IMG/VR virus record: IMGVR_UViG_3300015207_000448
DNA: 64,000 nucleotides
Direction: 5' to 3' (one strand)
DNA from: a virus
Taxonomy: Duplodnaviria > Heunggongvirae > Uroviricota > Caudoviricetes
In this document: one piece after another, positions 10,368 to 43,899 of the stretch
Numbering within the stretch: position 1 is the first letter of the stretch
Layout of the letters: every line of letters begins with the position of its first letter
The notes under the pieces: generated by a model
Told to the model about the DNA's origin: nothing
Database searches by the model: none
What the model saw: the letters and a program-made list of their open reading frames with translations, nothing else
Made by a program: the position numbers and the translations under genes

Positions 10368-12623
10368 TTAGCTACATTTGGAATACCCACATGCAGCGCA
10401 GGTCATACAACCTTCGACCATTTGTATCGGTTCTCCACATTTAGGGCATTTCGGGGCCTCTATCACGGCGTCATTAAAGATTTTCGACTTGAGACCTTCG
10501 ACCTCATTTGCGGCTTGCATAGTATTGTTATGCTTCAATTCGTGTTGAAGTTCATTATACATGTCCATCAACGCATATCCAATGGCAACAGGACAACTGG
10601 AGCCTTTGGATGTGTCTTGCTTAGTTGCCTTACGAACAGCATACGACGGACAGGTTCCAGCGCTCTTTAGTTGATCTACGATGTCTTCGATTGCAATATT
10701 TCCACGAGCGGCAAGTGATACCATTCGAGACAGTCCAACCATAAACAAAGCGCATCCACCTTGAGACCCTTTGCTAAAATAAGTTTCCAGCAACTGTCCG
10801 GTATGACGGTCAAAAAACGCAGTCAAGTGAAGAGTGCCGCAACCGGTAACGAGTGTTCTCTTGCGACCAATACAATCGTCAGAAGCCTTTCGTATTTTTG
10901 TTGGTTCATTATCTGATTTGGGTGTTTCTTCCGACTTTTTGTCAGTGGTAAGAATACCTTGACGCTGACAGCCATCACGCCAAATGGTCACGCCTTTGAG
11001 TCCTTGCCTCCAAGCCTCCATATAGAGGTCGGCAACCTGCTCAACCGTTGTCTCATGGGGGAGATTGACCGTGGAGCTAATTGACGCATCAATATATTTT
11101 TGCAGCATCGCCTGAACCTTGATACGATCGTGGTAGTCGATGTCCGCAGATGCAACAAAGAAGTCAGGTAATTTAGTTGCGCCGGTGACTTTCTTGTATT
11201 CCTGAACAATTTTGGCATCCACCTGATATGTGGTTTCCTCATTGTTCAACGATACGGTACGACGATTGTATGAAAAAGCGAAATTAGGCTCTACACCAGT
11301 GCTTACCTGAAGCATAGTGCCAATGGTTCCAGTTGGAGCACAAGTCAAAAGCTGAGAGTTGTAGAGGCCATATTGTTCGATTTCTTCCAGTACCTTATTG
11401 GACAAATCCACGCTCTTGATAAAATCTGAGTGTATAATGGCTCTTTTTATTTTCTCATCACATTTAGGAAAAGCACCTTTCTCTTTTGCCAGTTCGAGAG
11501 ATGTGGTGATGGCTTTGTAGGCAATGTTCTGATATACTTCCTGAATGACTTTAAGTGATTCAGGAGAACCATACTTTACTCCCAGTTTAATTAGCATATC
11601 TCCAAGACCGAGAGTGCCAAGGCCAATCTGGCGCCAGTCGCGAACTGAATCACGCTGTTCCTGTAGCGGATGTAACGACAACCCTTCAATTAAGACATCA
11701 TTCAAAGCATGGATAGCGATTTTAACTGCTGACATCAGTGCTTCCGCATTGATATATGCGTCTTTAGTGAAAGGGTTAACAACAAACTCGGATAAGTTGA
11801 TGCTGCCAAGCAGACATGAGCCACCAGCAGGCAGAGGCTCTTCTGCACATGGATTCACGCCCGCATATTTGAATCCGGTATTTTGAAGAAGATTATAGTT
11901 GGCTATACGGTCCCAATATAGGATGCCCGGCTCTGCCATCTCCCAGTTGCGTTTAGCAAGCAGCATGAACATTTCTTTGGCGCTGACAACACGACCGATT
12001 TTTGAGCCATCTTCCAAGGTGAACTCAAGGTTGAAATCAGAGTCTGTCTCAACTGCGTGCATGAAAGCATCAGTCATACGAACTGAGATGTTTGCTTTGG
12101 TGCAGACATCCAAGTTGGATTTAAGATTGATGAACTCTTCAAGGTCCGGATGCTCGCATGAAATGCTAAGCATGGTGGCACCTCGACGACCTTCTTGTCC
12201 GATTAGACCGGTTATGTAACTATAAAAGTCCATAAAGCTGGTGGCACCAGATGTGCTTTTGGCTGCATTATTCACATCAGCGCCTTTGGGCCGAAGATTG
12301 CTGACATCAATGCCACATCCACCTCCATAACTGAATGTGCGAGCCATCTTAGCGCCAGCATCAAATATAGACTCAAGGTTATCCTTGGGTGGCGTCACTA
12401 CATAACAGTTGCTGAGTGTTATCTTTCGGTCTTTGATGCCACGATTTGAAAGTATGCGACCGGCGAAGATGAATTTCTTTTCCCGGATCAATTCCTTGAC
12501 AGTTTCATCCTCAGCAGAAATTCTGTTGAGCCATTGCTCAAAGTCTTCACCCTTTTGCTGGTACTTTTTACGCCAAATGGTTACTGGCAGTTCCTCGTGA
12601 TTGAGCCATTCTTCTATAGTCAT
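10368..12623 (-). CDS. nrdJ: Class II (adenosylcobalamin-dependent) ribonucleotide reductase
   Basis: TLSNCYV, NPCAEEPL, APTGTI, GVTIWRDG; C-terminal TSCPD-like domain and CPKC...CAAC ribbon; likely start ATG 12623 overlapping thyX stop (ATGA); track start 12638. Confidence 0.9.
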   Translation of the reverse strand: MTIEEWLNHEELPVTIWRKKYQQKGEDFEQWLNRISAEDETVKELIREKKFIFAGRILSNRGIKDRKITLSNCYVVTPPKDNLESIFDAGAKMARTFSYGGGCGIDVSNLRPKGADVNNAAKSTSGATSFMDFYSYITGLIGQEGRRGATMLSISCEHPDLEEFINLKSNLDVCTKANISVRMTDAFMHAVETDSDFNLEFTLEDGSKIGRVVSAKEMFMLLAKRNWEMAEPGILYWDRIANYNLLQNTGFKYAGVNPCAEEPLPAGGSCLLGSINLSEFVVNPFTKDAYINAEALMSAVKIAIHALNDVLIEGLSLHPLQEQRDSVRDWRQIGLGTLGLGDMLIKLGVKYGSPESLKVIQEVYQNIAYKAITTSLELAKEKGAFPKCDEKIKRAIIHSDFIKSVDLSNKVLEEIEQYGLYNSQLLTCAPTGTIGTMLQVSTGVEPNFAFSYNRRTVSLNNEETTYQVDAKIVQEYKKVTGATKLPDFFVASADIDYHDRIKVQAMLQKYIDASISSTVNLPHETTVEQVADLYMEAWRQGLKGVTIWRDGCQRQGILTTDKKSEETPKSDNEPTKIRKASDDCIGRKRTLVTGCGTLHLTAFFDRHTGQLLETYFSKGSQGGCALFMVGLSRMVSLAARGNIAIEDIVDQLKSAGTCPSYAVRKATKQDTSKGSSCPVAIGYALMDMYNELQHELKHNNTMQAANEVEGLKSKIFNDAVIEAPKCPKCGEPIQMVEGCMTCAACGYSKCS

Positions 12624-13348
12624 TTCTCCTGATTGCATTTACGATTAGTACCTCTTTGCTTCTCAGAGAAATGAGAAACATATTCCTTGAGCTCGGTGTC
12701 AAATGCAGGTGTGGAGTTGAATCCGCAGCAACGCATTTCTCCGCACAGGCCATTACGGTACACGCATTTGCGTACCATCATAGCTGCCAGCTCAGGGTCA
12801 ATTTGTGCGATTTGATACTTGATTTCACGGAAAACAATAACTGTTTCAGCAGCAGCACAACCGGAACATAGCCTTAATTTAGCCATGTCAATCAACGATT
12901 GAGCGTTGACGCAAAGGCTAAGGTTGACCGGAGTCTGCCTATCAGCATTGTTTTTAAGCCACTCAAGCTCTTCAACTATCGCGTTTTCTTCTTGGATGTG
13001 GGGAGCTGTAATCGACCCTCCTTTCTGCCAATCGCTCAACAGAGATTTGATACGATTGGCTACATCGTCAATTTTTGCAGGCATACCAGGATTGCCGCCA
13101 TTGCGATCATCTCGACAAGTAAGTTGGAACGGTACAGAGCCGACATGATGACGGAGCAAATGGGTGCTGACGAACAGAGGGATGTTTTTTAGAGTTATCC
13201 AGAACAATTGTGTTCGGACTGGGGAGTGTTCAGCCTTGTAAAGTTGACTTAACGACGCATGGCTCTCACCAATAAACGTCGATGCGCACGCCTCCCTTAG
13301 AAGCTCAACGTCTGTGAGTTTTCGCACAGACACGGTAAAGTCCTTCAT
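12620..13348 (-). CDS. thyX: Flavin-dependent thymidylate synthase (divergent ThyX)
   Basis: EHSPVR, HLLRHHVG...CRDDR, RLC motifs; coupled to nrdJ. Confidence 0.75.
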   Translation of the reverse strand: MKDFTVSVRKLTDVELLREACASTFIGESHASLSQLYKAEHSPVRTQLFWITLKNIPLFVSTHLLRHHVGSVPFQLTCRDDRNGGNPGMPAKIDDVANRIKSLLSDWQKGGSITAPHIQEENAIVEELEWLKNNADRQTPVNLSLCVNAQSLIDMAKLRLCSGCAAAETVIVFREIKYQIAQIDPELAAMMVRKCVYRNGLCGEMRCCGFNSTPAFDTELKEYVSHFSEKQRGTNRKCNQEK

Positions 13349-22620: not shown

Positions 22621-24102
22621 CTACTTAATAATAGTCCTGTATCTTTTCTTTAGAGTCACTTTTGTGAGATTTCGTGTGATAGAAAAGTAGCGCCGAAACT
22701 CTTTAGAATACACCAATGGTTGCATAATTCGACACCGTAGATTATAAGTCTGGCGATTCTTGCAAAATCCAAGATAAGAGTTCAGTGTAGCCAGTATATG
22801 TTCCAGGTCTGCTGACGTAATCTGATTGGCTGGAGTTTGCATATAGTTGGCAATTTGAGTAACCTTATCAAAGAACCGTCCGGCTGTGCGATTGCTGAGA
22901 TATATTCGACCATTCTTTAAGTATGAGCCTACGAACATTGTATCGTGACTGGTTGGCTGGATGTATCGCTTATCCTTGTGCATGGTTACTTCCATTGCTT
23001 TGATTTTAATCTCGGCAGCTTTAATCAACCATCTCAAAGCCTTCTTATCACTACATATTAAAATGAAATCATCCACAAACCTATGGTATGCACACCTAAC
23101 CCCTTTGGCTCGTAACTCTTTGATGCGGTCCATCATATACGCATCAAAATCTGCCATATAAAAGTTGGCAAATAACTGAGTGGTCAGATTGCCAATCGGA
23201 GCCCCACGGCCTTTGCCGGTACGAAACAGCGATTTGTTATGAGCCAGTCCTGCCCAATCTTTCGGATCAGAGTTAAAAACACAGTTGAGCTCCGGTCGGT
23301 GCATAACCACCACATCGATCAACCAAAGTAAAAGATTCTTAAAGTCTCCGTGATACTGGGATTGAGCAAATTCGATAAGTTGGTCACGCATACGTCGTTG
23401 AGGCAAAGACATAAAGAAACCAACCAAATCTCCACGAAATAAGTACGCATCAACGCCATAATTAAATGTTACATCCTTAATAGCTTGATACACTCCCTCG
23501 ACAGCTGATTTGGTTCCAAATCCAACACGGCAATTGTGAGTGACATTACCAATCTCTTCGTTTAATGCTTCAAAATGAGGGACCAAACGCATACAAATCC
23601 AATGATGGATAATGCGATCCCTGAAAGCAGCAGCAAATACTTCACGAAGTTTTGGAAACCTTACAAGGAAACATGTTGAAGTTGAAGGTTGATAAGTCCC
23701 TTCAATCAACTCTGTGGTAAGTAAATCCAAATCCTCGTTAGCGATGGGCATGTAATCCTGGCATTGCTGACTGGATGTCTTTCCACGACAACAGTCTTCG
23801 TATGCCACCTGAAGACTTGCTCTTAATCGAAGCCAAGCCTTTGTCGGATGAGCAACAGCAGGGCGAACCACGTTAGTGTTGTACTTGTTGTTGTTGTTGC
23901 TATTACCACTGCCAAAGTTGACGTTCCACGAGTTGTTAGCCGAGTTCTCAGTGGACGACCAATGGTTGCCTGTGCTGTTATCTTGAGGCTGTGCAGCTTC
24001 GTAACTCCGAACATAGTTCAAACCATGAAACGGAGTCAGCCTCCCATATCCGAGCAAAGCTCTAAGTTCTCTCCTGATGTTACAGTTATTAGGCTTCTTC
24101 AT
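22621..24102 (-). CDS. DGR reverse transcriptase
   Basis: PKLREVFAAAFRDRIIHH, GDLVGFF, GAPIGNLTTQLFANFY, RFVDDF; adjacent TR, avd and VR. Confidence 0.95.
   Translation of the reverse strand: MKKPNNCNIRRELRALLGYGRLTPFHGLNYVRSYEAAQPQDNSTGNHWSSTENSANNSWNVNFGSGNSNNNNKYNTNVVRPAVAHPTKAWLRLRASLQVAYEDCCRGKTSSQQCQDYMPIANEDLDLLTTELIEGTYQPSTSTCFLVRFPKLREVFAAAFRDRIIHHWICMRLVPHFEALNEEIGNVTHNCRVGFGTKSAVEGVYQAIKDVTFNYGVDAYLFRGDLVGFFMSLPQRRMRDQLIEFAQSQYHGDFKNLLLWLIDVVVMHRPELNCVFNSDPKDWAGLAHNKSLFRTGKGRGAPIGNLTTQLFANFYMADFDAYMMDRIKELRAKGVRCAYHRFVDDFILICSDKKALRWLIKAAEIKIKAMEVTMHKDKRYIQPTSHDTMFVGSYLKNGRIYLSNRTAGRFFDKVTQIANYMQTPANQITSADLEHILATLNSYLGFCKNRQTYNLRCRIMQPLVYSKEFRRYFSITRNLTKVTLKKRYRTIIK
23852..23979 (-). 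repeat. DGR template repeat (TR, 128 bp)
   Basis: 14 AAY codons; identical to 24683..24813 except at TR adenines and one 3-nt indel; ends ...CGCCCTGCTGTTGC then diverges (TCATCC versus CTATCA). Confidence 0.95.
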
Positions 24103-24604
24103 CAGGACCCTGACTTTGTTGTAATGAGCTGCGCCATGCTACGAGTTGACGCATCACGGCGTCCATAGACGCCATCAGCTGCTTGTGCTTCGCATCGCTA
24201 ACGAGGTTGGAAATACAATTAAGCGTAATCTTTACCACGCTCATTAAAGAATTAGCTTCTTCAAGCGCATTTTGTTTAAGAAATGGATCAGGATGGTTAT
24301 AGGCTGCTGCCGCCCATCGAATCAGTTCAGCAAAATTCCCCAATAGAATATCAGAGACTTTCACTGTCTTCTTTGGCATTAACTGTACGATTTCAATGAG
24401 CAATCGCATTGCACTATGTAAAGACCTGTATATCGGGGTGTTTTGGAAACCCGGTGCTTTCTTTTGCGCAGCTCTTTTCTTTCTACGAGCGCGATTTATT
24501 TCATCATTTGATAAGATCACTTCCTGCCCAGGCTCAGTAGGAATACCGCTTTCAAAGACAGCTTTCATCTCATCATAAGACATTTTACTTGCTTTCTGCT
24601 CCAT
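24089..24604 (-). CDS. avd: DGR accessory variability determinant (Avd-like four-helix bundle)
   Basis: 171 aa, helical and basic, NTPIYR...QLVAWRSS; canonical position between VR and TR. Confidence 0.8.
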   Translation of the reverse strand: MEQKASKMSYDEMKAVFESGIPTEPGQEVILSNDEINRARRKKRAAQKKAPGFQNTPIYRSLHSAMRLLIEIVQLMPKKTVKVSDILLGNFAELIRWAAAAYNHPDPFLKQNALEEANSLMSVVKITLNCISNLVSDAKHKQLMASMDAVMRQLVAWRSSLQQSQGPDEEA

Positions 24605-24631
24605 AAAATTTAACTTAGTTTAACAGTTATA

Positions 24632-24656
24632 GGCGAGCTGCCAGAGGCAGCTCGCC
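24632..24656. promoter_or_regulatory. DGR target-recognition hairpin/cruciform downstream of VR
   Basis: Perfect 11-bp stem ggcgagctgcc-aga-ggcagctcgcc, 7 nt after the target stop codon. Confidence 0.8.
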
Positions 24657-24663
24657 AGGAAGA

Positions 24664-27600
24664 TTAAAGAAAAAATTGATAGGCAACAGCAGGGCGAACC
24701 ACGAGAGTGTAGCACTTGCCGTAGTAGTCGCCGCTACCACCACTGCCAAAGTTGACGTTCCACGAGCCGCCAGCCGAGTACTCAGTGGACGACCAATGGC
24801 CGCCTGCGCTGTGCTGGGTGAAGGGTGCAGAGCCATTTGCAACCTGAGCACGCCACAGAATCATTGAATAGATGGGTTTCTCAGCCTCCACTAATGAGTG
24901 GAAATAGCGATTGATTGCGGCCAATTCAACTCCAGTGTAGTTGCTAAACTCCACATGACTGGGTGATACATTTGTCTTAATTTCATTTGGTTCTGATGAG
25001 TTCAAGGCTTCAGTGATCATGTTGTCAATGACAGTACGCGCCGGAACCGTGTTTTGTCCTACCTGATATGTGTCGCCCATACCTCCAGTTCTGGACTTTG
25101 CAAAGAAGCTATATTGACGATATTCTTCACCACAAGCGGGCAGGTACCAGTTACCCTTAGCATACTGAGGATCGAGGGCTTCGCCTTCGTTCACCTTGGG
25201 CTCATAGAGATAACAACCATACGCAGCCGGATATAAGAACTGTTGGTATTTGGTCAGGTTATTGTTTGCCTTATGGAGCACTTCCATTGCATTAGCTAAC
25301 TCTTCAACTGTTGTGGGAATCTCAGCAAATTGATGCTCTACGCCATCTTCATCAGTATAGTATGTGCCAACCGACTCATTAGCATCAGACAACAGATACG
25401 CATTGATAATCTGATTTGCATGACGAATAATGGCTTGAGTTTTTTGCTTACCCTGCCAATCAGTAACAGTACCTGATGCAGTACTCCAATCTTTGAACCC
25501 ATCATCAGAGTTCTCGTCAAGATAATTGCCAGTTGTCAAGTAGTCATTATTTGTACCACCAGACCATCCGCGAGCAGTTATGTTGCTGATACCAGGCAGG
25601 TCAAAAATGCTTGAAATACCGGTTGCGGCCATAATTTCATTTTGGATGGCTGTATGTCCATTGTTATCGTTTGATGGATAAAGACCAAATACTACGCTAC
25701 CTGTATTGATGAAACCATCACTACTATGATAAGGTACGTTTTCTTTGCAATCAACAAGCAGCTGATAACCAACAAGTTTCCTGGTTGTCTTAAAAGCTTC
25801 TGTCGGCTTATTGTAGCCAGTAAAAATTGTGGGCTCCGCTTCATTGTCGCCCTGCCACATTTCGTTGATTTTGAAGACAATACCTACGATGCTCTTGTCT
25901 TTCATATACTGGTCATCAAATGTGCCATCAGCGTATGCGAAGTCACCGATTTTGGGTATGCGACGATAAAAACCAACCTGATAGTCGGCTGTCATTTCTG
26001 CACCACTGGTCTTGACAATGCTACACTGAACGATATATCGCATATCAGTTCCACTCTCATCAAGTTTATTGACTTTCAGCACACCATTGATTGAATCGGT
26101 GAAAGCACCATAGGCTTTAGCGCTATCATCAATACTCCAATTGACATCGGGCTGTCCGTCTTTCAACGCAAAGTCATTACCTGTTGATGGCGAGCAGACG
26201 AGTTTATACTGGAACAAACCAGTTTCTGTGATATACGAGGGGCCCTGAATAGAGATACTGTTTATGGCACGACGAGAGTATGAAATAAACAAGGGATTTT
26301 CGGTATTATCAATATCGCCATAAGTACCAGCGAGAGCAAGTTTGTTGTCAAACGTAAGATTACCTGTCAACGATACAACTCCAGTAATTGAAGCATTAAG
26401 CCGCTGGAGCCACATCATTACATCAACAGCAAATGCAGTCCACGAGACATTCTCAATCTCTACCTTATTCACGTTCATTGCTTGAGAATAAGCAAGTTGA
26501 ACGAGCGATTGTGTCTGGGAGGCAATCTTATGTTTTCCAAGAACACTCAGAGTACGAAGGTTTTCAAGTCCTTCGACCATCAAGCTCTTGAGGTTAGGTT
26601 GACCATCAACCTTAATCTCATTGACAGATGCAGGAAGTTCGACATCTGTCAATGTGGAGGTCTTAGGAAGTGTAACACTGGTATATCCCGAACCTCTCAG
26701 CAATAGAGAACGCAAACGAGGGTAATCCCCAGAGAAAGTACCGGCAAAAGCAGACGCATTTGTCAGATCGATTTCTTCCAGGTTGCGGCAGTTGGAAATA
26801 GCCAGTCCTCTTGGGTGGAACTCAATAGCCGTACCATCCGGAGCCCAGCACTCAAGTTTACGAAGACGCTTGCCGGTGATATTAACGCTACCATCATCTC
26901 CGCAAGGAAGATTTCCAATATTACCAATGCTTTTAGCATAGTGCATCCAACGCATTGTAAACTGCGTGTTGGAGTCAGTATCGCACACCATACGCACAGT
27001 TTCTCCAGGAGCACACAAATATGGTTCACTACCATCTTGTGCTATCCACTCACCATTCTGCTTGGCGTAGATAGTAGCCATCTTGCCACCAATCGCCAAC
27101 TTGGGATAAATATACTGATATGCAGTATATTCAATGTCATAGACTGGTGAAAGACCTGCGTTGTTGTTGATTGAGCGGAAGCTTAGAGTGCCATCTCCTC
27201 CGGTTTCATATTCGCACCACGACATCAGCATAGGGAGTCGGCGATTCATAAACTGCTTCTCACATTCCAGCTGATCTCCGATAGCCTGTGTAATGGGGTC
27301 CTGACTTACATCAATCAGACCGTTCATCAGTTTCACCTGAGCAACCTCATATAGTACGCGGCTTGTCTCATTATACGCTACTGCCGGAAAGTATTCCTGT
27401 ACCCAATAGTAACGCTGCTGATAGTATTCTTCAACACTACCACAAATGAGTGCCATACGCGAAAATATGTCACGCATCATGTTGCGAATCAAGTCAGGAT
27501 AAGCACGCTCTATAAGAGTGTAGAAGATGTTGTTCTCTCCATTCCAATAGTTGCTTCCATTCGCGTCCTTGGTATGCTCCAGCGCATAATACGGTTTGGT

Positions 27601-30600
27601 TTGTCGGCCCTGGTTGTCTGTAGCTTTAATGGTGTCCAGGTCATCCTGTTTCAAGCGCACCAACTTATCCACAGCTGGATTGATCCAGTAATATGTATTT
27701 TTAGTACGGTTGTCGGTAGCAGCCTCTAATTTACAGAAAGCCTGATGGAAGATTACATCCGTTTTATCGATGTAAGCATCCGCGTGAGCCTTAAAATATG
27801 CCACACGCGCCTTTGAGAAGCAATCATTCAGTACATTCATATCAGATGTGCCGAGAGTGTTCATTGCTTCTTCCAAGGTTACGGATTTCTTGCCATCTAC
27901 CGTGTCTATAGTGATGATTGTGCTCGCAAGTTGTTCAGTCAATTTCGGACTGCCATAAGCATAGGCACGATTGTCAGCGCCCCACGCAGTAGGAACCTTA
28001 ATGATTTTCTCAAACTTGGCCGTAGCCGGGTTGTAATAATAGATATTGTATCGATCAGAACCGGAATTGAAAAGCCAATACTGATGATCGCGCACCAGAT
28101 TCGCACTGTCAGCAATCAACTGAGCCTCTGTACCTGCATACGGTTTAAGCAGTGGCGAGCAAGCAAAGATAAAGTTCGCGAACTCAGCAAAATGCGTGAA
28201 GAGTGTGTTCTCTGTACCATCTTTAGCTTCATCCTCAATGCGCTGAACGCCTTTATCGGTTTCGCCACCATCATACTTACTGCCTATCTCAACCTCAAAC
28301 GAGAGTGTGTCGCTGGTGCCTGCTTTATAGCAATAACCATTCTTTATGTCGCCAGTATTGATGGTGACACTTTTGGGATAGATGTTGCCTTCCCATGCAC
28401 CTTGCGCATTTTTATTGACAACCCAAGGCATCTGGAAAAGTGCAGCGATTGCACCATTGTCGGCTCCGGAAACGCACATGTAATCCGGGTGTTTCTTTTT
28501 ATCATAGCCAAAGGTCTGTTTGTCACCCTTGCCGCTCCCCCATGTCTGAAAGCCACAGAAAATGGGGTTGCCATTACCAATCTGGTAAAAGCAAAGGAAT
28601 GGCTTTTCATAACACGTTGCATGTCCCTCAAGAACAGGGCGGTCATTCGCGCCATTATTTACCAGTGCTTGCCACAATTCGTCATAGGCCCATATAGCGC
28701 CCAATTTATGGCTTTGCATTGGAGAGGCATAATTACACTTACCCACAAGTTTTGTAATGCCTCCACGTCCGTCTTCAAGTTCGTATTTGCTGGCATATAC
28801 CTGACTTACTCCATCGAGAGAATTGAAGTAAGAAATTTTCTTAAAGTATTTGCCACCATCTACATAATGTGTGGGGTCAGAAGAATTGTATTCTTCGGCA
28901 GTGATTTCCACATCGTCCTCGAAGCCGTCGGTAATATTCCACCAATAATAGCCTTTCGCACTGGTTCCTTGTCCTTTATCGGTCATACCAGTAAAGGTTC
29001 CGGAATGTTTCATATCCAGACTGTCAGCATTGCCACGCTCCTTGTAGATACGAACATCAACTGTTACATTTTTCTGCTTACTCTGGTTTTCCCTACTGGG
29101 ATAATGACCGCCTTCAGGAATTTTACGCAGAATGGTATTCAGACCCATTGCATTGCAAAGGTCATAGCCAATTTCCGTACCATTGAAAATAGAATTGAAT
29201 CGCTTAAACGCTTTCTTATCCTCAATAGTCGGCATACCGGCCATATAATCATTCTGAATCTGTGTCGAGCCTAATTGCTGATTTTTGTATATACGCACGC
29301 CATATATGTCAATATCAGCCTCATCAGAACCAATTACAATCTCCTGGGCGCCCTTTGCTCCAATAGGAGTAAAGTAATCATCATCGCTGTAAATAAACTC
29401 TCGATTTGCTTTGCCATTTACATATATGCGCACAAGATTCATTCCTTCACCACGAAGGTTGCGGATGATATTGATAGCAATATGCTCACGCATTTCTTCT
29501 TGAAAGTGCGCGTCACAAATATCTTCAGTGAAGTTGTTACGACTAAGGCATACAGCTCTTGTGGGGTAAAATTTCAACCCGGTATAGACTCCGTTAAAAG
29601 GAGCTGAAGCATCAACAACGGTAGATTCTCCAACAATATTCTTAACCTTTAGGTCAAGCTCAACTGTAAGCGAACCCTCTGTGCCACCTTCGTTGTGTCC
29701 AGTGTTGTCTGTGAACAGTTCTTCCGGAAGAGAAAGCCTGTTTCCAGCACCAATACTCAACACTGGGACACTTACCTCTCGACCTGTAGAATCCGTTTCT
29801 TGATTATATTTCCAACCTGTATTAGTATCATCCGGGCTTGACAACAAGTTTTCCAGCTGATACTGAGTTTCATTGATGACAATTGTTTGTTTCTCTGGAG
29901 AAATCACAATATTTGCTCCACGAGTCGGCGCAAAATTTTCAGAGTTGTCAACAACGAAATTGATATTGTTGCCATAGGTTACACCTGACAGGTTTGTGAA
30001 TGTTGCTTGAGCATTGATGGTGCTTGGCTGCTCATCACCGTTATACTCCATTGAGAAGTTCTCATCAAAGGCATAGCTCTCTCCATTGACGCAGATCTGC
30101 TCTTTCTGAATATATATCTGACCGGTATCTCGATCCTGAAGGGTCAATCGCAGGGGAGTTTCATTCCCAACCGGATTGTAAATTGCATACCTAAAGATAG
30201 TTGCACGAGTCCAGTTCTGAAACTCTTCAACTATATCTGTCACAGCAAGAATGGGGGATGAATTTGTGTCTCCCTCAGGTATGTATATAAACTGGAACTC
30301 CAGATGTTCGGTTTCTGCGGAATAGCCTTCACCAAAAGCAATCCAAGCCTCAGCTTTTATTGCTCCACGAAGCAAGTCAAACTCAGCTTGTGTAAGTGAG
30401 GCTCCGTAAGTATTGTCCGTATATGTAGTTGTTCCAAGAGTGAAATTCTTGGTATAGCCATTGATTTTTATACGAAGCTGTTTCTGCACACTGCCGGAGA
30501 TACGAAAGGGGAGCTGAATTGTATTTCCTTTATATGCGGTTGCAATCGACCCCTCATAGTTAGCGGCAACATTTGAATATACAATAGACATCGTAACCGG

Positions 30601-31221
30601 ACTGGCAGATATACCACTTGTTTCACCGGTTGCCACCAATCGTATCTGATAGGTGGCATCAGATGTTAACAGCTTGCTAAGGTCTATCGTTTTTGTCTGG
30701 CCCGATTGGATATTGACAGTAAACTCTTTGCTGGAATCCCAAGAACCCCACGCGCCGTTTGAATTTTGAGTACGACAGGACACCACGATAACAGCATCTT
30801 CATCTTGATCTGTTGTTTCGTGTGTTATAGGATTATATTGCTGCCAGAGATAAGAGACTTCTACACTTGCAACCGGCTTACTGGTCACAAGAGTTGCTGC
30901 TGATTTCCTTGTAAGCGTGACGATGTTGCTGACGCCACCTTGCTCTTCAAGAAGAGGAATAGCAACATTCAGCAATCGTTTAGCCGCCTCGGAATCCGGG
31001 TCTGTCATATAGTCATTGTAGGCTGCTTGATCAGCAAAGCCCCAAATGTGGTAATAGCCATCTGTGTCTTTGTCCTGTGGAATAACAATATATCCAATCT
31101 TAGAGGACAGCTGACTTTTGATGAATTTTTCCACTGCTGCACCACTGTAGGCTTGGGTGCCATCATCCCACGGTATGTCTATCGAAGGGATGTCACTGTT
31201 GATAATGATTCTTTTTGCCAT
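24664..31221 (-). CDS. 2185-aa DGR target, probable receptor-binding/adhesin protein (LamG-like, CotH-like, LRR and C-type lectin domains)
   Basis: C-terminal WYLPACGE...HWSSTE...SWNVNF...VVRPAV CLec signature with VR; LRR segment LEEIDLTNA/LRSLLLRGS; located in tail module. Confidence 0.88.
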   Translation of the reverse strand: MAKRIIINSDIPSIDIPWDDGTQAYSGAAVEKFIKSQLSSKIGYIVIPQDKDTDGYYHIWGFADQAAYNDYMTDPDSEAAKRLLNVAIPLLEEQGGVSNIVTLTRKSAATLVTSKPVASVEVSYLWQQYNPITHETTDQDEDAVIVVSCRTQNSNGAWGSWDSSKEFTVNIQSGQTKTIDLSKLLTSDATYQIRLVATGETSGISASPVTMSIVYSNVAANYEGSIATAYKGNTIQLPFRISGSVQKQLRIKINGYTKNFTLGTTTYTDNTYGASLTQAEFDLLRGAIKAEAWIAFGEGYSAETEHLEFQFIYIPEGDTNSSPILAVTDIVEEFQNWTRATIFRYAIYNPVGNETPLRLTLQDRDTGQIYIQKEQICVNGESYAFDENFSMEYNGDEQPSTINAQATFTNLSGVTYGNNINFVVDNSENFAPTRGANIVISPEKQTIVINETQYQLENLLSSPDDTNTGWKYNQETDSTGREVSVPVLSIGAGNRLSLPEELFTDNTGHNEGGTEGSLTVELDLKVKNIVGESTVVDASAPFNGVYTGLKFYPTRAVCLSRNNFTEDICDAHFQEEMREHIAINIIRNLRGEGMNLVRIYVNGKANREFIYSDDDYFTPIGAKGAQEIVIGSDEADIDIYGVRIYKNQQLGSTQIQNDYMAGMPTIEDKKAFKRFNSIFNGTEIGYDLCNAMGLNTILRKIPEGGHYPSRENQSKQKNVTVDVRIYKERGNADSLDMKHSGTFTGMTDKGQGTSAKGYYWWNITDGFEDDVEITAEEYNSSDPTHYVDGGKYFKKISYFNSLDGVSQVYASKYELEDGRGGITKLVGKCNYASPMQSHKLGAIWAYDELWQALVNNGANDRPVLEGHATCYEKPFLCFYQIGNGNPIFCGFQTWGSGKGDKQTFGYDKKKHPDYMCVSGADNGAIAALFQMPWVVNKNAQGAWEGNIYPKSVTINTGDIKNGYCYKAGTSDTLSFEVEIGSKYDGGETDKGVQRIEDEAKDGTENTLFTHFAEFANFIFACSPLLKPYAGTEAQLIADSANLVRDHQYWLFNSGSDRYNIYYYNPATAKFEKIIKVPTAWGADNRAYAYGSPKLTEQLASTIITIDTVDGKKSVTLEEAMNTLGTSDMNVLNDCFSKARVAYFKAHADAYIDKTDVIFHQAFCKLEAATDNRTKNTYYWINPAVDKLVRLKQDDLDTIKATDNQGRQTKPYYALEHTKDANGSNYWNGENNIFYTLIERAYPDLIRNMMRDIFSRMALICGSVEEYYQQRYYWVQEYFPAVAYNETSRVLYEVAQVKLMNGLIDVSQDPITQAIGDQLECEKQFMNRRLPMLMSWCEYETGGDGTLSFRSINNNAGLSPVYDIEYTAYQYIYPKLAIGGKMATIYAKQNGEWIAQDGSEPYLCAPGETVRMVCDTDSNTQFTMRWMHYAKSIGNIGNLPCGDDGSVNITGKRLRKLECWAPDGTAIEFHPRGLAISNCRNLEEIDLTNASAFAGTFSGDYPRLRSLLLRGSGYTSVTLPKTSTLTDVELPASVNEIKVDGQPNLKSLMVEGLENLRTLSVLGKHKIASQTQSLVQLAYSQAMNVNKVEIENVSWTAFAVDVMMWLQRLNASITGVVSLTGNLTFDNKLALAGTYGDIDNTENPLFISYSRRAINSISIQGPSYITETGLFQYKLVCSPSTGNDFALKDGQPDVNWSIDDSAKAYGAFTDSINGVLKVNKLDESGTDMRYIVQCSIVKTSGAEMTADYQVGFYRRIPKIGDFAYADGTFDDQYMKDKSIVGIVFKINEMWQGDNEAEPTIFTGYNKPTEAFKTTRKLVGYQLLVDCKENVPYHSSDGFINTGSVVFGLYPSNDNNGHTAIQNEIMAATGISSIFDLPGISNITARGWSGGTNNDYLTTGNYLDENSDDGFKDWSTASGTVTDWQGKQKTQAIIRHANQIINAYLLSDANESVGTYYTDEDGVEHQFAEIPTTVEELANAMEVLHKANNNLTKYQQFLYPAAYGCYLYEPKVNEGEALDPQYAKGNWYLPACGEEYRQYSFFAKSRTGGMGDTYQVGQNTVPARTVIDNMITEALNSSEPNEIKTNVSPSHVEFSNYTGVELAAINRYFHSLVEAEKPIYSMILWRAQVANGSAPFTQHSAGGHWSSTEYSAGGSWNVNFGSGGSGDYYGKCYTLVVRPAVAYQFFL
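24683..24813 (-). repeat. DGR variable repeat (VR, 131 bp)
   Basis: Encodes HSAGGHWSSTEYSAGGSWNVNFGSGGSGDYYGKCYTLVVRPAVA at the target C-terminus. Confidence 0.95.
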
Positions 31222-39609: not shown

Positions 39610-42600
39610 TTATCCGTTTTGAGTTGCAAGGCCATTGAGCATCATTACACCGTCACCGGCGGCTTCATAAAGCGCATAGGCTACTTCACGTTTCATTCTG
39701 TCGATTATAGCCACATTATCAGGGTTAGTGAGGTCAATAGAATCGACCTTCATCAAATTTTGGATATTGATATTTATCTGCTTCGGCACAGCACGTTCTT
39801 TCTTGCTGGATTTGTAGTCGGATGTCTTTGTGCCAGTTCTACCGCCGCCTCCATCTGCGGTTCCAGTTGGGTTATTGCCTCCAATGCCTGTTACAGCAGG
39901 AGCCTTGACAACATTACCCATCTGCTGAGGTGTCATTGTTACTCCCGTTGTATTATACTGCATCGCAGGAGTTTGTAATGACTGCCCTTGATTCCAATTC
40001 GGCCACCAGCTATAATTATTGCCGCTTGAAGAGTTGGTCAGAGGGTTCCACAACATAGTGTTAAAATTATATGGGTCTGCCGTAGAGCCACTAACAAAGC
40101 CCCCCCAGTTATACGGGCTTGAATTATCAAAATAAGTAGAGCCTCCTGATTGCCATGTTGTCGGGAACATTACCGGCCATTCAGAGTTTACCGTCTGAAC
40201 AGTTGTCAACAACGTGTTCATGTTGTTCGAGAAATCAATCAAGCCCTGTGAGATTTCAGCCGGTTGATTGTTGTCGTCAATCAATTGCCAAGTCTGAGAA
40301 GCTGAGTTCCATCTCCACTTTTGACCATTTATTGTGCGAATCTCACCTTCAAAAGCTCCTGAAATGGCTTCATTCTGACCGATAAATGACTGCGCCAATG
40401 TCAACAATGTGTTTGCGTATGTTTGCAAACCCTGCGTAGCTGGGTCAGATTCAAGACCAAGTTTCTGAATTGACTCCAACAGACGCTCCATCTGTCCAGC
40501 GGCAGTTTGAGCCATAACCTCAGGGGTTTCACGCCCACTGGGGTCACGCCACACACCATCGCCATAATAACCCATATTGCGGTACCAACCAGAGACATCG
40601 TTGGGGTTGTAATCAGCAAGTGTTTGCCCAAGAATATCATAATCGCCCCAACGTAGAGCTTTTACAACATCAAGTTCAGTGAGGGTACCAGCTTCAAGTT
40701 TGGTTTTGAAATCAGCAATGGCATTTTGCGCCTCTACCAATTGATGCAACGAAGACCATAGAAGTTGAGAACCTATATAAGATTGAGCAATCTCTTCTCC
40801 ATTCCAGTGTTTAGCAACATCGGTATCTTCATTCCACTGATTTGGACGTATTTTATTAGCCCATGATGACGGACCATAAGTAGATTCAAAAGTATCTCGC
40901 CAGTTTTGAGCGTCCAAAGCAGTGGCCTTGCCATAAAGCATTGATGCCAAACGGTGCTGATTCTCATCAATTATTTTAGATCTATATTGACCATGTAGTA
41001 ATTCCATCGCTGCTGCCGCATCATACATCACAGCATCGTTGGTATCACTTGTACCATCAGGATTGGCATAACGGATAACATTGCCGTTACCGTCCTTATA
41101 GAACCACCCGTCCTTGTTATTGTCATAAAATAATTTTAAGCCATACTGCTCACCATAGTTATTAAAGAGTTCTGCGGCTCTGGAGGCAGCCCCATAGCTT
41201 CCCCACATAGAGTCAGCTGCATAAAACCTATCATACATGGTTTTATAGACTTCATTGCCGACATCTTTTGTGGTGGTTTCATTGGGAGTTTCAATCCCCA
41301 ACAATTCCTTCATCAACTCAATACGACGCTGGATGAGGTCATTGATGTCGTAATTCTTACGCCATACGAACTCAAGATATTTTTCAGTCCGAGTGTTGCC
41401 ATTTGTCAAGGCCCCATCAAGTAATTGATGGCTTTGAGTAAACGAATTTACAAAACCTGACAAGGTATTAAGATTTGCATTAAAACTTGCAAATGATGCT
41501 GCCAAACCACCTAAAGCTAAACCGGCAGCGGCAATCCAACCAACGGGACCGCCAACCATTGCAGCCATGCCAGCGGCTGCAAATAAACCGCCAGACCACA
41601 TATCTGCGGTATTAGCGTCTTCTTTGGTCATCTGAGACATGCCAGCCATAGTTAAGCCAGCACCAACTCCCATACCAGCAAAACCTTTGACTCCATTCAA
41701 CGCTTGCATCTTAGCAACACGCCGATTAAAAGTCTTGCGATTTTGACGATATTGACGTAAATTGGCTTTATCCTCAGCCTGACGAGCTGCATATACGCCA
41801 CTGTTCCATGCCTGGAGCTCAGAACGTGGGACGCCTACATTATCTACGTTGTTTAAGTAATAGCCTTGTGTGGATGCGTGAGGACGTTTTAAGTTAAGTC
41901 CTTTGGTCGCCTTTATATATTGCTTATGGGTTAAGCCTGGCAATAGTGGGTTTCCAACTCCAAACATGGGAACACCGGCAACCCCACCAGAGGTTGCACT
42001 TCCAGTACCAACTAAGGCAGCAGTATTTATGTGAGCTGCACGATTAGCTAAAGCATTTAATCCCAGGACACCGCCCAATCGACTTGTGCCAAAATGCGTC
42101 ATCCAAGCTGTTCCAGCACCCCTAATAGCAAATGCAAGACTGCGAAATGCACCTGTCATGCCTGTGATAAAAAACGTAGCTTTACGTAAGCCCAACAGCC
42201 CTAAGAAAACACTCCTTAATGCAGTCACAGCCTTGACAACTGGCCATATCATCAATTGGAACTTAGCCCACATTTTTATTACCGGGCCAAACCAATCAAA
42301 GAATTTTGCGAACCATTTAGACGCATCAATCAGAACCTGCATCAGCTCCATCAAGCTATTTGCAACCTCACGAAATACCTCAGTTGCACGATCGCTTTTC
42401 AGCCATCCTATAGCAGAGTTCATCCAAGCACGCAGCCCTCCTTGAACACCGTTAAAAGCTGTCACGCCCTTATCAGTAAACACGGAAGTCAACTGTGCCC
42501 ACAAGCCTTGTAAAGTATTCTTTTTCTCATCTGCCAAACGAGCAGACATTCCGCTGGATAAGAAATTCTCAAGGTAAATCTTATCCCACTTGTCAACATG

Positions 42601-43899
42601 CGTAGCCAGTGCCACAGCTCCTGAAGCAGCTGTTTTATGGAACAGTTTGTAGAAAGCGTCAACTTCAAGATCTGCGTTATTGAGTTCCTTAAAGATTTGA
42701 AGAATATCTTTTCTGGAACCATCAGCATTAAGACGTTTTATGCCAAGTGAATCCCAAGCAGCCTGTTGCTTTTTTGTAGGATTCACTATATTTGCCATGA
42801 TGGTACGCAATGTGGTACCAGCCTGAGAGCCCTTGATACCAGCGTCACCAAGCACACCAATGGCAGCTGTAGCCTCTTGGAATGGCACATCACCAGCCGA
42901 CAAAAGAGATGCAGCGTATTTGTACGCCTCTGCAATTTCTGTCAAAGTTGTATTTGACATAGTGAACGTGTTCGTCATAATGTCTGCGGCATTACGCATC
43001 TTGCTTGGAGCAATGTTGTACGCAGTCATAATGTTTGTCACCAAATCTGCGGTCTGTCCCAAATCAGTATCACCAACCAATGCAATATCTGCGATGGGCC
43101 GGATTGCTTGTTGAATAGCCTCCAAATCAAGACCTGCCATCGCAAGGAATTTCGCGGCATCAGCAACCTCTGTCACCTTGAACTTGGTTTCCATACCGAC
43201 ATTTCGGACGGTCTGTGTCATGGAAGAGAAGCGGCCTGAGAAATTCTCCTTATCATCGTGAGATTTAAGGATATTCTCAACCGTCTTCATTAAGTTGTCG
43301 TATTCAGCTGCCTGATCAACAATGTTTGATACCATAGTACCCAACCCTGCGATACCATAGGCAATACCCATGCCCTTCAGCATATCAATTGCCATACCTC
43401 CATTATTAGGCAGAGGAGTTGGACCCCACAGTTTATAACCGAGATTTGCAGGTCCCGGTACTCTTGGGGCTGTGTATCTTGGCGTAGATGTGGTGCGAGG
43501 CGTGGTTCTGGTAGCTTGTGTAGTGGCTCGCCTACCAGTAGTTGCAGTTGACGCAGTTGTAGTTGCAGTTCTGGCTGTAGTTCGGCCCTTTTGAGTTGTA
43601 GCGCCAAGGGTTACACCCATAGCGTTGAGCTGTTGTACTTCAGCCTTTGCCATTTGCAAACCTCGAATCAGTTTGCCTATTTTCTGCGTTGCCGGGCGAG
43701 TATCAATCTTTACCGTGTACTTTCCTCGATTGAGCGCACTCATAGTCTCCACAAGTCCTCGAACCTTATTTTGAAGGTCAACAAGAGGTCTTGTAGCTTT
43801 GTCCATTGATGTCAAGGCGGTCTTAAATTGATTGATCGCCGTAAGAGCATTAGTAGCATTGACATCAACTATATAATTGACTTGGTAAGTCTGAGCCAT
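39610..43899 (-). CDS. Tail tape measure protein (TP901-type core)
   Basis: EVADAAKFLAMAG...LGDAGIKGSQAGTTLR; 1429 aa with hydrophobic Ala/Gly segments. Confidence 0.92.
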   Translation of the reverse strand: MAQTYQVNYIVDVNATNALTAINQFKTALTSMDKATRPLVDLQNKVRGLVETMSALNRGKYTVKIDTRPATQKIGKLIRGLQMAKAEVQQLNAMGVTLGATTQKGRTTARTATTTASTATTGRRATTQATRTTPRTTSTPRYTAPRVPGPANLGYKLWGPTPLPNNGGMAIDMLKGMGIAYGIAGLGTMVSNIVDQAAEYDNLMKTVENILKSHDDKENFSGRFSSMTQTVRNVGMETKFKVTEVADAAKFLAMAGLDLEAIQQAIRPIADIALVGDTDLGQTADLVTNIMTAYNIAPSKMRNAADIMTNTFTMSNTTLTEIAEAYKYAASLLSAGDVPFQEATAAIGVLGDAGIKGSQAGTTLRTIMANIVNPTKKQQAAWDSLGIKRLNADGSRKDILQIFKELNNADLEVDAFYKLFHKTAASGAVALATHVDKWDKIYLENFLSSGMSARLADEKKNTLQGLWAQLTSVFTDKGVTAFNGVQGGLRAWMNSAIGWLKSDRATEVFREVANSLMELMQVLIDASKWFAKFFDWFGPVIKMWAKFQLMIWPVVKAVTALRSVFLGLLGLRKATFFITGMTGAFRSLAFAIRGAGTAWMTHFGTSRLGGVLGLNALANRAAHINTAALVGTGSATSGGVAGVPMFGVGNPLLPGLTHKQYIKATKGLNLKRPHASTQGYYLNNVDNVGVPRSELQAWNSGVYAARQAEDKANLRQYRQNRKTFNRRVAKMQALNGVKGFAGMGVGAGLTMAGMSQMTKEDANTADMWSGGLFAAAGMAAMVGGPVGWIAAAGLALGGLAASFASFNANLNTLSGFVNSFTQSHQLLDGALTNGNTRTEKYLEFVWRKNYDINDLIQRRIELMKELLGIETPNETTTKDVGNEVYKTMYDRFYAADSMWGSYGAASRAAELFNNYGEQYGLKLFYDNNKDGWFYKDGNGNVIRYANPDGTSDTNDAVMYDAAAAMELLHGQYRSKIIDENQHRLASMLYGKATALDAQNWRDTFESTYGPSSWANKIRPNQWNEDTDVAKHWNGEEIAQSYIGSQLLWSSLHQLVEAQNAIADFKTKLEAGTLTELDVVKALRWGDYDILGQTLADYNPNDVSGWYRNMGYYGDGVWRDPSGRETPEVMAQTAAGQMERLLESIQKLGLESDPATQGLQTYANTLLTLAQSFIGQNEAISGAFEGEIRTINGQKWRWNSASQTWQLIDDNNQPAEISQGLIDFSNNMNTLLTTVQTVNSEWPVMFPTTWQSGGSTYFDNSSPYNWGGFVSGSTADPYNFNTMLWNPLTNSSSGNNYSWWPNWNQGQSLQTPAMQYNTTGVTMTPQQMGNVVKAPAVTGIGGNNPTGTADGGGGRTGTKTSDYKSSKKERAVPKQININIQNLMKVDSIDLTNPDNVAIIDRMKREVAYALYEAAGDGVMMLNGLATQNG

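Follow-up and report, generated by a model that had tools for sequence, protein, structure and literature searches.

The 64,000-nucleotide (nt) stretch of phage DNA analyzed here (IMG/VR virus record IMGVR_UViG_3300015207_000448, class Caudoviricetes; hereafter the window) carries a diversity-generating retroelement (DGR), made up of a target gene ending in a variable repeat (VR), a hairpin, an avd-like gene, a template repeat (TR), and a gene for a reverse transcriptase (RT). We are highly confident that this is a complete and recently active DGR of the type known from phage BPP-1, located in the tail-fiber module of a Bacteroides-type tailed phage of about 100 to 110 kb. The system is of a known type: it is a BPP-1-kind DGR, and a DGR has already been published for Bacteroides phage BS-TP1, an isolate of the same phage clade. 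All coordinates below refer to the window, and all genes and elements of the cassette are on its minus strand.

The adenine specificity of the element is visible when the TR is aligned with the VR. We observed 20 substitutions, 20/20 of them at TR adenines: 13 A to G, 5 A to T, and 2 A to C. An initial annotation, made from the sequence alone, had arrived at this very count, and our realignment found it to be exact. The VR contains an additional 3 nt (one NNC codon) within the (AAC)4 run, and the number of substitutions moves by one depending on where this gap is placed. The hypergeometric chance that all 19 to 20 differences fall on the 40 adenines of the 128-nt TR is 6e-12 to 1e-12. The same specificity was found among 26 TR/VR pairs from 17 related phages, with 385 differences at A-sites versus about 6 at non-A positions (the boundary base was left out of this count). 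The 26 VRs also bear on the W-N-V-N-F motif, whose two AAC codons had been reported as unchanged in the window's VR and ascribed to selection on structural asparagines. The two codons are indeed unchanged there, but the explanation is rejected: the first Asn codon is changed in 21/26 and the second in 20/26 of the VRs, and only the window's VR retains both. Judging from this alignment, the Asn positions are therefore diversified rather than structural, and their retention in the window's VR is incidental.

Has the VR been rewritten recently? The locus is 74% identical in DNA to that of Bacteroides phage BS-TP1 (PQ571274.1), with identical gene order and gene lengths. The same cassette is present in 13 close IMG/VR contigs (RT 73 to 82% identical) and a distant one (43%), in 13 close and 3 distant metagenome contigs, and in the species-representative genome G001, whose DNA is about 97% identical at the locus. 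Nucleotide identity among relatives peaks from about 200 nt before the avd stop codon to about 25 nt beyond the TR. The VR is the least conserved stretch (identity of 0.58 to 0.69 versus 0.87 for the TR), and its 3' flank (24657..24682) is 0.91 to 0.98 identical. The most informative relative is contig OLOX01000164.1, which is 99.2% identical to the window over 4362 nt. Its 35 differing columns comprise 25 in the 131-nt VR versus 10 in the 4231 nt outside it (odds ratio about 100, p about 1e-31), and the two TRs differ only by T/A at 23854, a change that the VR repeats at 24685. The genome G001 also carries a different VR. We observed the same co-evolution of the two repeats throughout the clade: where two phages have TRs with different bases at a non-A position, the VR of each agrees with its own TR. 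Because OLOX01000164.1 differs from the window almost solely in the VR and mirrors the point change of the TR, the turnover of the VR between near-identical phages indicates TR-to-VR transfer in the very recent past. The comparison between genomes points to a transfer that is unidirectional and ongoing.

On the minus strand, the cassette is ordered target(VR)-hairpin-avd-TR-RT. Its parts are as follows, where IMH denotes the site of initiation of mutagenic homing and ORF an open reading frame.

24664..31221 (-), cis target gene: ORF for a giant tail-module protein of 2185 amino acids (aa), with the VR at its extreme C-terminus
24683..24813 (-), VR, 131 nt, aligned to the TR
24657..24682 (-), VR 3' flank (IMH-like), stop codon included; the flanks of VR and TR diverge here
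24632..24656 (-), GC-rich hairpin with a perfect 11-bp stem and a 3-nt loop, assessed by folding energy against shuffles
24089..24604 (-), Avd-like accessory protein, 171 aa, assigned by fold match
23980..24102 (-), pre-TR leader, conserved as nucleic acid; equals codons 1 to 41 of the RT ORF and overlaps the avd stop by 14 nt
23852..23979 (-), TR, 128 nt with 40 A, in frame within the RT ORF (codons 42 to 84)
23829..23851 (-), block directly 3' of the TR (IMH*-side flank, candidate start of a spacer RNA), invariant and within the RT coding sequence
22621..24102 (-), RT ORF, 493 aa, with the RT domain from about residue 85 to 100

The target-side signals of a DGR appear to be present as well: a GC-rich repeat end, a difference between the VR and TR flanks (IMH versus IMH*), and an inverted repeat 3' of the VR. 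The identity between TR and VR stops after ...GCTGTTGC (the GC-rich repeat end is also given as ...GCCCTGCTGTTGC), and the flanks diverge from there. The stop codon of the target is 16 nt beyond the end of the VR, and the hairpin (24656..24632) begins 8 nt past this stop codon. The hairpin folds with -15.5 kcal/mol (z = -6.4), a value equaled by 0/200 shuffles. A CTTTAATCTTC-like motif in the VR 3' flank is common to the flanks of the VRs at remote targets, which are described below. A scan of the 64-kb window with an A-masked TR revealed no further TR-like copy or second VR.

Profile matches and motifs indicate a DGR-type RT with an intact catalytic core. The RT matches phrog_1423 (E = 5e-52), and its best solved relative is the Bordetella RT, bRT (8ub7_A, E = 3e-12), with query residue 100 pairing with bRT residue 21; the Pfam RVT_1 match is under the cutoff (25.6 versus 29.6 bits). 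The RT keeps the IGxxx(S/T)Q and xVDD motifs. The stretch PIGNLTTQLFAN (PIGNLTTQ) aligns to PIGSLTSQLFAN (PIGSLTSQ) of bRT, and FVDD (residues 342 to 345), found in 16/16 homologues, aligns to YMDD. Residues R153 and I303 align with R74 and I181 of bRT, which are discussed as determinants of adenine mutagenesis (PMC7826257).

The accessory protein was assigned by its predicted structure. The AlphaFold model has a predicted local distance difference test score (pLDDT) of 79 overall and of about 90 over four long helices (residues 57 to 163). With target template modeling (TM) scores of 0.84 to 0.89 and root mean square deviations of 1.1 to 1.6 A, the top Foldseek matches of this model were 2gsc, BPP-1 Avd (4dwl), and the Avd chains in the bRT-Avd-RNA complex 8ub7. 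For 4dwl and 8ub7, the target TM scores were 0.84 to 0.88 and the deviations about 1.6 A, at E = 3e-3 to 1e-2. According to the model, the protein has the Avd fold, a four-helix bundle of the Avd/S23 family. It also has an N-terminal extension of about 55 aa (residues 1 to 55, window 24440-24604 (-)) with a basic helix (residues 33 to 49) that includes the invariant SNDEINRARR and is absent from BPP-1 Avd (about 110 to 120 aa). This basic helix may be an extra RNA-binding element.

What kind of protein is diversified? Residues 64 to 1178 of the cis target match phrog_24896, whose function is unassigned. BS-TP1 (gp27) and 13 IMG/VR relatives also have the target gene, with lengths of 2187 to 2203 aa. 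Since its neighbors are tail, tail-fiber, and tape-measure genes, the cis target is most likely a tail fiber or adhesin. The C-terminal 260 aa weakly match Pfam Lcl_C (PF07603) in 14/15 homologues. In a PDB profile search, the C-terminus of the target matched the C-terminal domain (CTD) of Legionella Lcl (8q4e, E = 0.005), a structure described as C-type-lectin-like (PMC11162425), and its top Atlas cluster is viral and 81% Lcl_C. By these matches, the VR domain at the C-terminus of the target is of the Lcl_C/DUF1566 type and predicted to be C-type-lectin-like.

The cis target is not the only gene linked to this TR in the clade. In G001, two remote VRs are located 47 and 53 kb from the TR, where they end Lcl_C-type proteins of 222 and 265 aa. 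Both match the TR at non-A positions from a TGG TCN TCC motif onward, and each is then followed, at 28 nt, by a GC hairpin that differs in sequence from the cis hairpin but has equivalent spacing. One remote VR each was found in BS-TP1 (about 50 kb away) and in seven near-complete IMG/VR genomes, and the remote VRs of G001, BS-TP1, and these seven genomes carry their own hairpins. The TR of the window probably also writes two small remote Lcl_C proteins in its own genome, whose VRs would be expected to carry the GCCGGGCCAG...CTGGCCCGGC hairpin. Phage DGRs commonly have such non-adjacent targets at distances of up to about 50 kb (Wu et al. 2018, PMC5758913).

Measured against these results, most of what the initial annotation had proposed holds. 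The minus strand does carry the elements in the order target(VR)-hairpin-avd-TR-RT. The signature of BPP-1-type mutagenic retrohoming is borne out by bRT as the best solved RT relative, by the Avd fold, and by the adenine-only differences, and the proposed C-type-lectin-like target agrees with the Lcl_C matches of its homologues, the 8q4e profile match, and the Atlas cluster. The suggestion that the system is intact fits the RT, avd, and target ORFs, which appear whole and with catalytic motifs in 16 relatives, and the turnover of the VR between near-identical phages. The DGR had also been called complete. This is right for the parts of the cassette, which are intact, but not for the idea that the cassette is the whole system, given that two remote VRs follow the same TR in G001.

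On the model of BPP-1, we propose the following mechanism. The RT-Avd complex would bind an RNA that runs from the 3' end of avd through the leader and the TR into the first tens of post-TR bases, and would reverse transcribe it with misincorporation only opposite adenines. The complementary DNA (cDNA) would then replace the VR of any gene with a GC-rich 3' repeat end, a VR-specific flank, and a GC hairpin. The boundaries of the RNA and the chemistry of priming are adopted here by homology with BPP-1. The cis target of homing would be the C-terminal Lcl_C/DUF1566 domain of the 2185-aa tail protein, and in close relatives the same TR would also write one or two Lcl_C proteins of 222 to 265 aa about 50 kb away. 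The purpose is likely to be variation of ligand or receptor binding, a role that we infer from the same homology.

The extra codon in the window's VR is not unique to this phage. A VR one codon longer than its TR was found in 6 of about 36 distinct VRs, and the opposite state, one codon shorter, in none. The six are the cis targets of the window, G001, L076, BS-TP1, and L011 and the remote target of L010; this bias is not statistically secure, as the lineages are not all independent. OLOX01000164.1 has the same (AAC)4 TR as the window and yet a 4-codon VR. Because a 99.2% identical contig with the same TR differs in this way, the length of the VR appears to change on the timescale of single homing events. 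We also considered loss of a codon from the TR after the last homing and rejected it, both on account of this contig and on account of the recurrence of the longer state in separate lineages and in one remote target. Length mismatch between TR and VR at AAC runs is an already known phenomenon, since Wu et al. (2018) reported indels in 7% of DGRs, 74% next to AAC, and proposed RT slippage (PMC5758913).

Changes in the length of the TR itself were also found. In L002 and L086, the TR has (AAC)3 and the cis VRs have three codons, as does the remote VR of L002 (L051), the only one readable in these two phages. Because (AAC)3 TRs pair with 3-codon VRs, we take it that changes in TR length propagate to the targets. 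A separate case is L058, the remote VR of IMG/VR genome G009, which has five NNC codons; the TR of this phage has four, as does its cis VR. The targets of a single DGR can thus differ in length from one another.

The TR is not immune to change in composition either. In L076 (contig ERZ778517 NODE-66, 2328-2462; 96.6% identical to the window), the TR has lost 11 adenines through A-to-T and A-to-G changes. They occur at positions 1 and 2 of former AAC/AAT codons, which are now TAC, GGC, or TAT, the mutation pattern of a DGR, and the VR of L076 matches the altered TR at the eroded positions. These sequences suggest that mutagenized cDNA or a VR once overwrote the L076 TR. Overwriting of this kind shrinks the diversification space of the element.

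Could the DGR of the window be a fossil, with its TR/VR mismatches dating from ancient mutagenesis and homing now over? Activity cannot be shown from a single genome, and the loss of 11 adenines in L076 illustrates that such elements can decay. We nevertheless consider this very improbable, as 16/16 relatives have unbroken ORFs for RT, avd, and target with the catalytic motifs in place, the VR of the 99.2% identical contig is entirely different and that contig shows the mirrored TR/VR point difference, and G001, at about 97% identity, has a different VR too. Recombination of tail-fiber tips between co-circulating phages, instead of retrohoming in situ, might also have created the diversity of VRs among relatives. 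Tail-fiber modules recombine often, and identity among the relatives is mosaic along the target gene. Imported VRs, however, would not track the resident TR, whereas each VR fits its own TR at non-A positions, lineage-specific changes and length included; we see hardly any chance that recombination is the explanation, and slightly less than for a fossil.

Some observations do weigh against the reading of a complete and recently active BPP-1-type DGR. The evidence for activity comes from comparison between genomes. Searches of Pfam, PHROGs, NCBIfam, and PDB profiles gave no sequence-level match for the Avd-like protein. Every Lcl_C match is under the Pfam gathering score, the window's own C-terminus had no such match, and the predicted structure of the C-terminal 260 aa of the target is poor (pLDDT 49) and unfit for a fold search. 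The probable link to remote targets in the window's own genome comes from G001, which is about 97% identical. Lastly, the RNA structure predicted after the TR has no covariation support (RNAalifold, -14.8 kcal/mol, one compensatory pair).

The location of the TR within the RT ORF raises another question. Is the TR translated as part of the RT? The ATG that starts the RT ORF and overlaps the avd stop codon is conserved in 16/16 phages. Before residue 125, ATG1 and TTG16 are the only in-frame starts conserved in these 16 phages, and two of them have no in-frame start codon between codons 22 and 125. Even relatives at 43 to 47% identity keep an open frame across the TR. Such an arrangement has precedent, since one of the classes in DiGReF comprises DGRs whose TR and annotated RT ORF overlap (PMC3521204). 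These points favor an RT that carries a TR-encoded peptide, which would be translated from the ATG upstream of the TR. We rate such a peptide at near even odds.

The alternative, to which we give an equal chance, is that the RT is not translated through the TR and starts at a non-canonical or lineage-specific codon just past it (e.g., GTG at codon 99), with the open frame of leader and TR as a by-product of nucleotide conservation. The conserved starts, the two phages that have none in codons 22 to 125, the frame kept open in relatives at 43 to 47% identity, and the DiGReF class all speak against such a start. The leader speaks for it, in that it evolves like a nucleic-acid element. Its nucleotide identity among relatives is 0.89 to 0.95, and in the 40 pre-TR codons the variable columns are distributed evenly over the codon positions (13/10/16), with a nonsynonymous-to-synonymous ratio (N/S) of 2.1 versus 0.41 in the RT domain. 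This is the pattern expected from a nucleotide-level constraint, here presumably on the DGR RNA. Moreover, bRT, whose residue 21 corresponds to residue 100 of our RT, has no such extension, the relatives at 43 to 47% identity have an ATG just before the AY..C motif and the first RT helix, and according to Wu et al. (2018) the TR does not undergo translation (PMC5758913). The 40 nt across the end of the TR and the start of the post-TR region (alignment A5, columns 1 to 40) hardly vary among 14 phages, even at third codon positions.

A stronger proposal would join these threads: that the RT can be made only from the ATG overlapping the avd stop, through leader and TR, and that copying of the (AAC)4 run repeatedly adds one codon (6 of about 36 VRs). 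We hold this only tentatively and consider it rather unlikely. If it were true, the TR would be at once the template for mutagenesis, a part of the RT messenger RNA, and the code for an 84-aa N-terminal tail of the RT, and this tail would be an un-mutated half of a lectin domain. Synthesis of the RT could be coupled to use of the template, either by ribosomes moving across the TR or by the peptide itself, and the length of the loop would be diversified as well as its sequence.

How does the DGR compare with known systems? The closest described one is that of BS-TP1. The two have the same order, an RT of 493 aa, a four-helix-bundle protein of 171 aa, and a large target (gp27, about 2187 aa), and in BS-TP1, too, the RT ORF contains the TR, and the cis VR exceeds the TR by one codon. 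They differ in the TR (at about 13/128 positions), in the VR, and in that BS-TP1 has one remote target, whereas G001, the closest relative of the window, has two. The DGR of BS-TP1 has been published, with gp27 among DGR-target structures, in Gut Microbes in 2025 (PMC12694917); the sections of that article available to us do not describe the remote targets, the overlap of TR and RT, or the length mismatch.

The prototype, BPP-1 (mtd-avd-TR-brt), is alike in its order, adenine-only differences, match to bRT, Avd fold, GC-rich repeat end, and hairpin. Its target is the small Mtd protein, whereas that of the window is a 2185-aa protein with a domain of the Lcl_C/DUF1566 type. The window further differs from BPP-1 by a TR that forms an in-frame part of the RT ORF, so that no non-coding spacer separates the two, by the extension of about 55 aa on the Avd-like protein, by FVDD instead of YMDD in RT motif C, and, for the clade, by the additional remote targets.

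The DGR of Quimbyvirus ('Quimbyviridae'), from Bacteroides phages, has a pair of one structural and one distant target, as here, and its activity was likewise deduced from adenine-site differences between near-identical genomes (Benler et al. 2021, PMC8008677). Compared by description, Quimby-like genomes have a median of about 75 kb versus about 100 to 110 kb here, and three overlapping frames share the RT of Quimbyvirus, whereas that of the window is one ORF (PMC8008677). DGRs with a DUF1566-type VR (category 'd', CLec2, e.g., the Legionella DGR) share the placement of the VR in a DUF1566-like motif, and the catalogue of Wu et al. also contains non-adjacent targets within about 50 kb and TR/VR indels next to AAC repeats; in that catalogue, 3-nt indels are mostly from non-phage 'Lineage 4' DGRs, whereas here they recur in a phage clade (PMC5758913).

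The window thereby offers a clean and well-documented example of a DGR at work in gut phages of the Bacteroides type. The about 36 natural TR/VR pairs from one clade reveal which positions are truly diversified, both Asn codons included, how frequently VR length changes at AAC runs, and that a TR can erode. These findings leave the picture of how a DGR works unchanged; what could matter more widely is whether translation of the RT includes the TR.

Elsewhere in the window, we noted a large-subunit ribonucleotide reductase at 10368-12638 (-) (phrog_84, E = 1e-126) and a 1429-aa tape-measure protein at 39610-43899 (-). Both genes fit a large long-tailed phage of about 100 to 110 kb, like the relatives.

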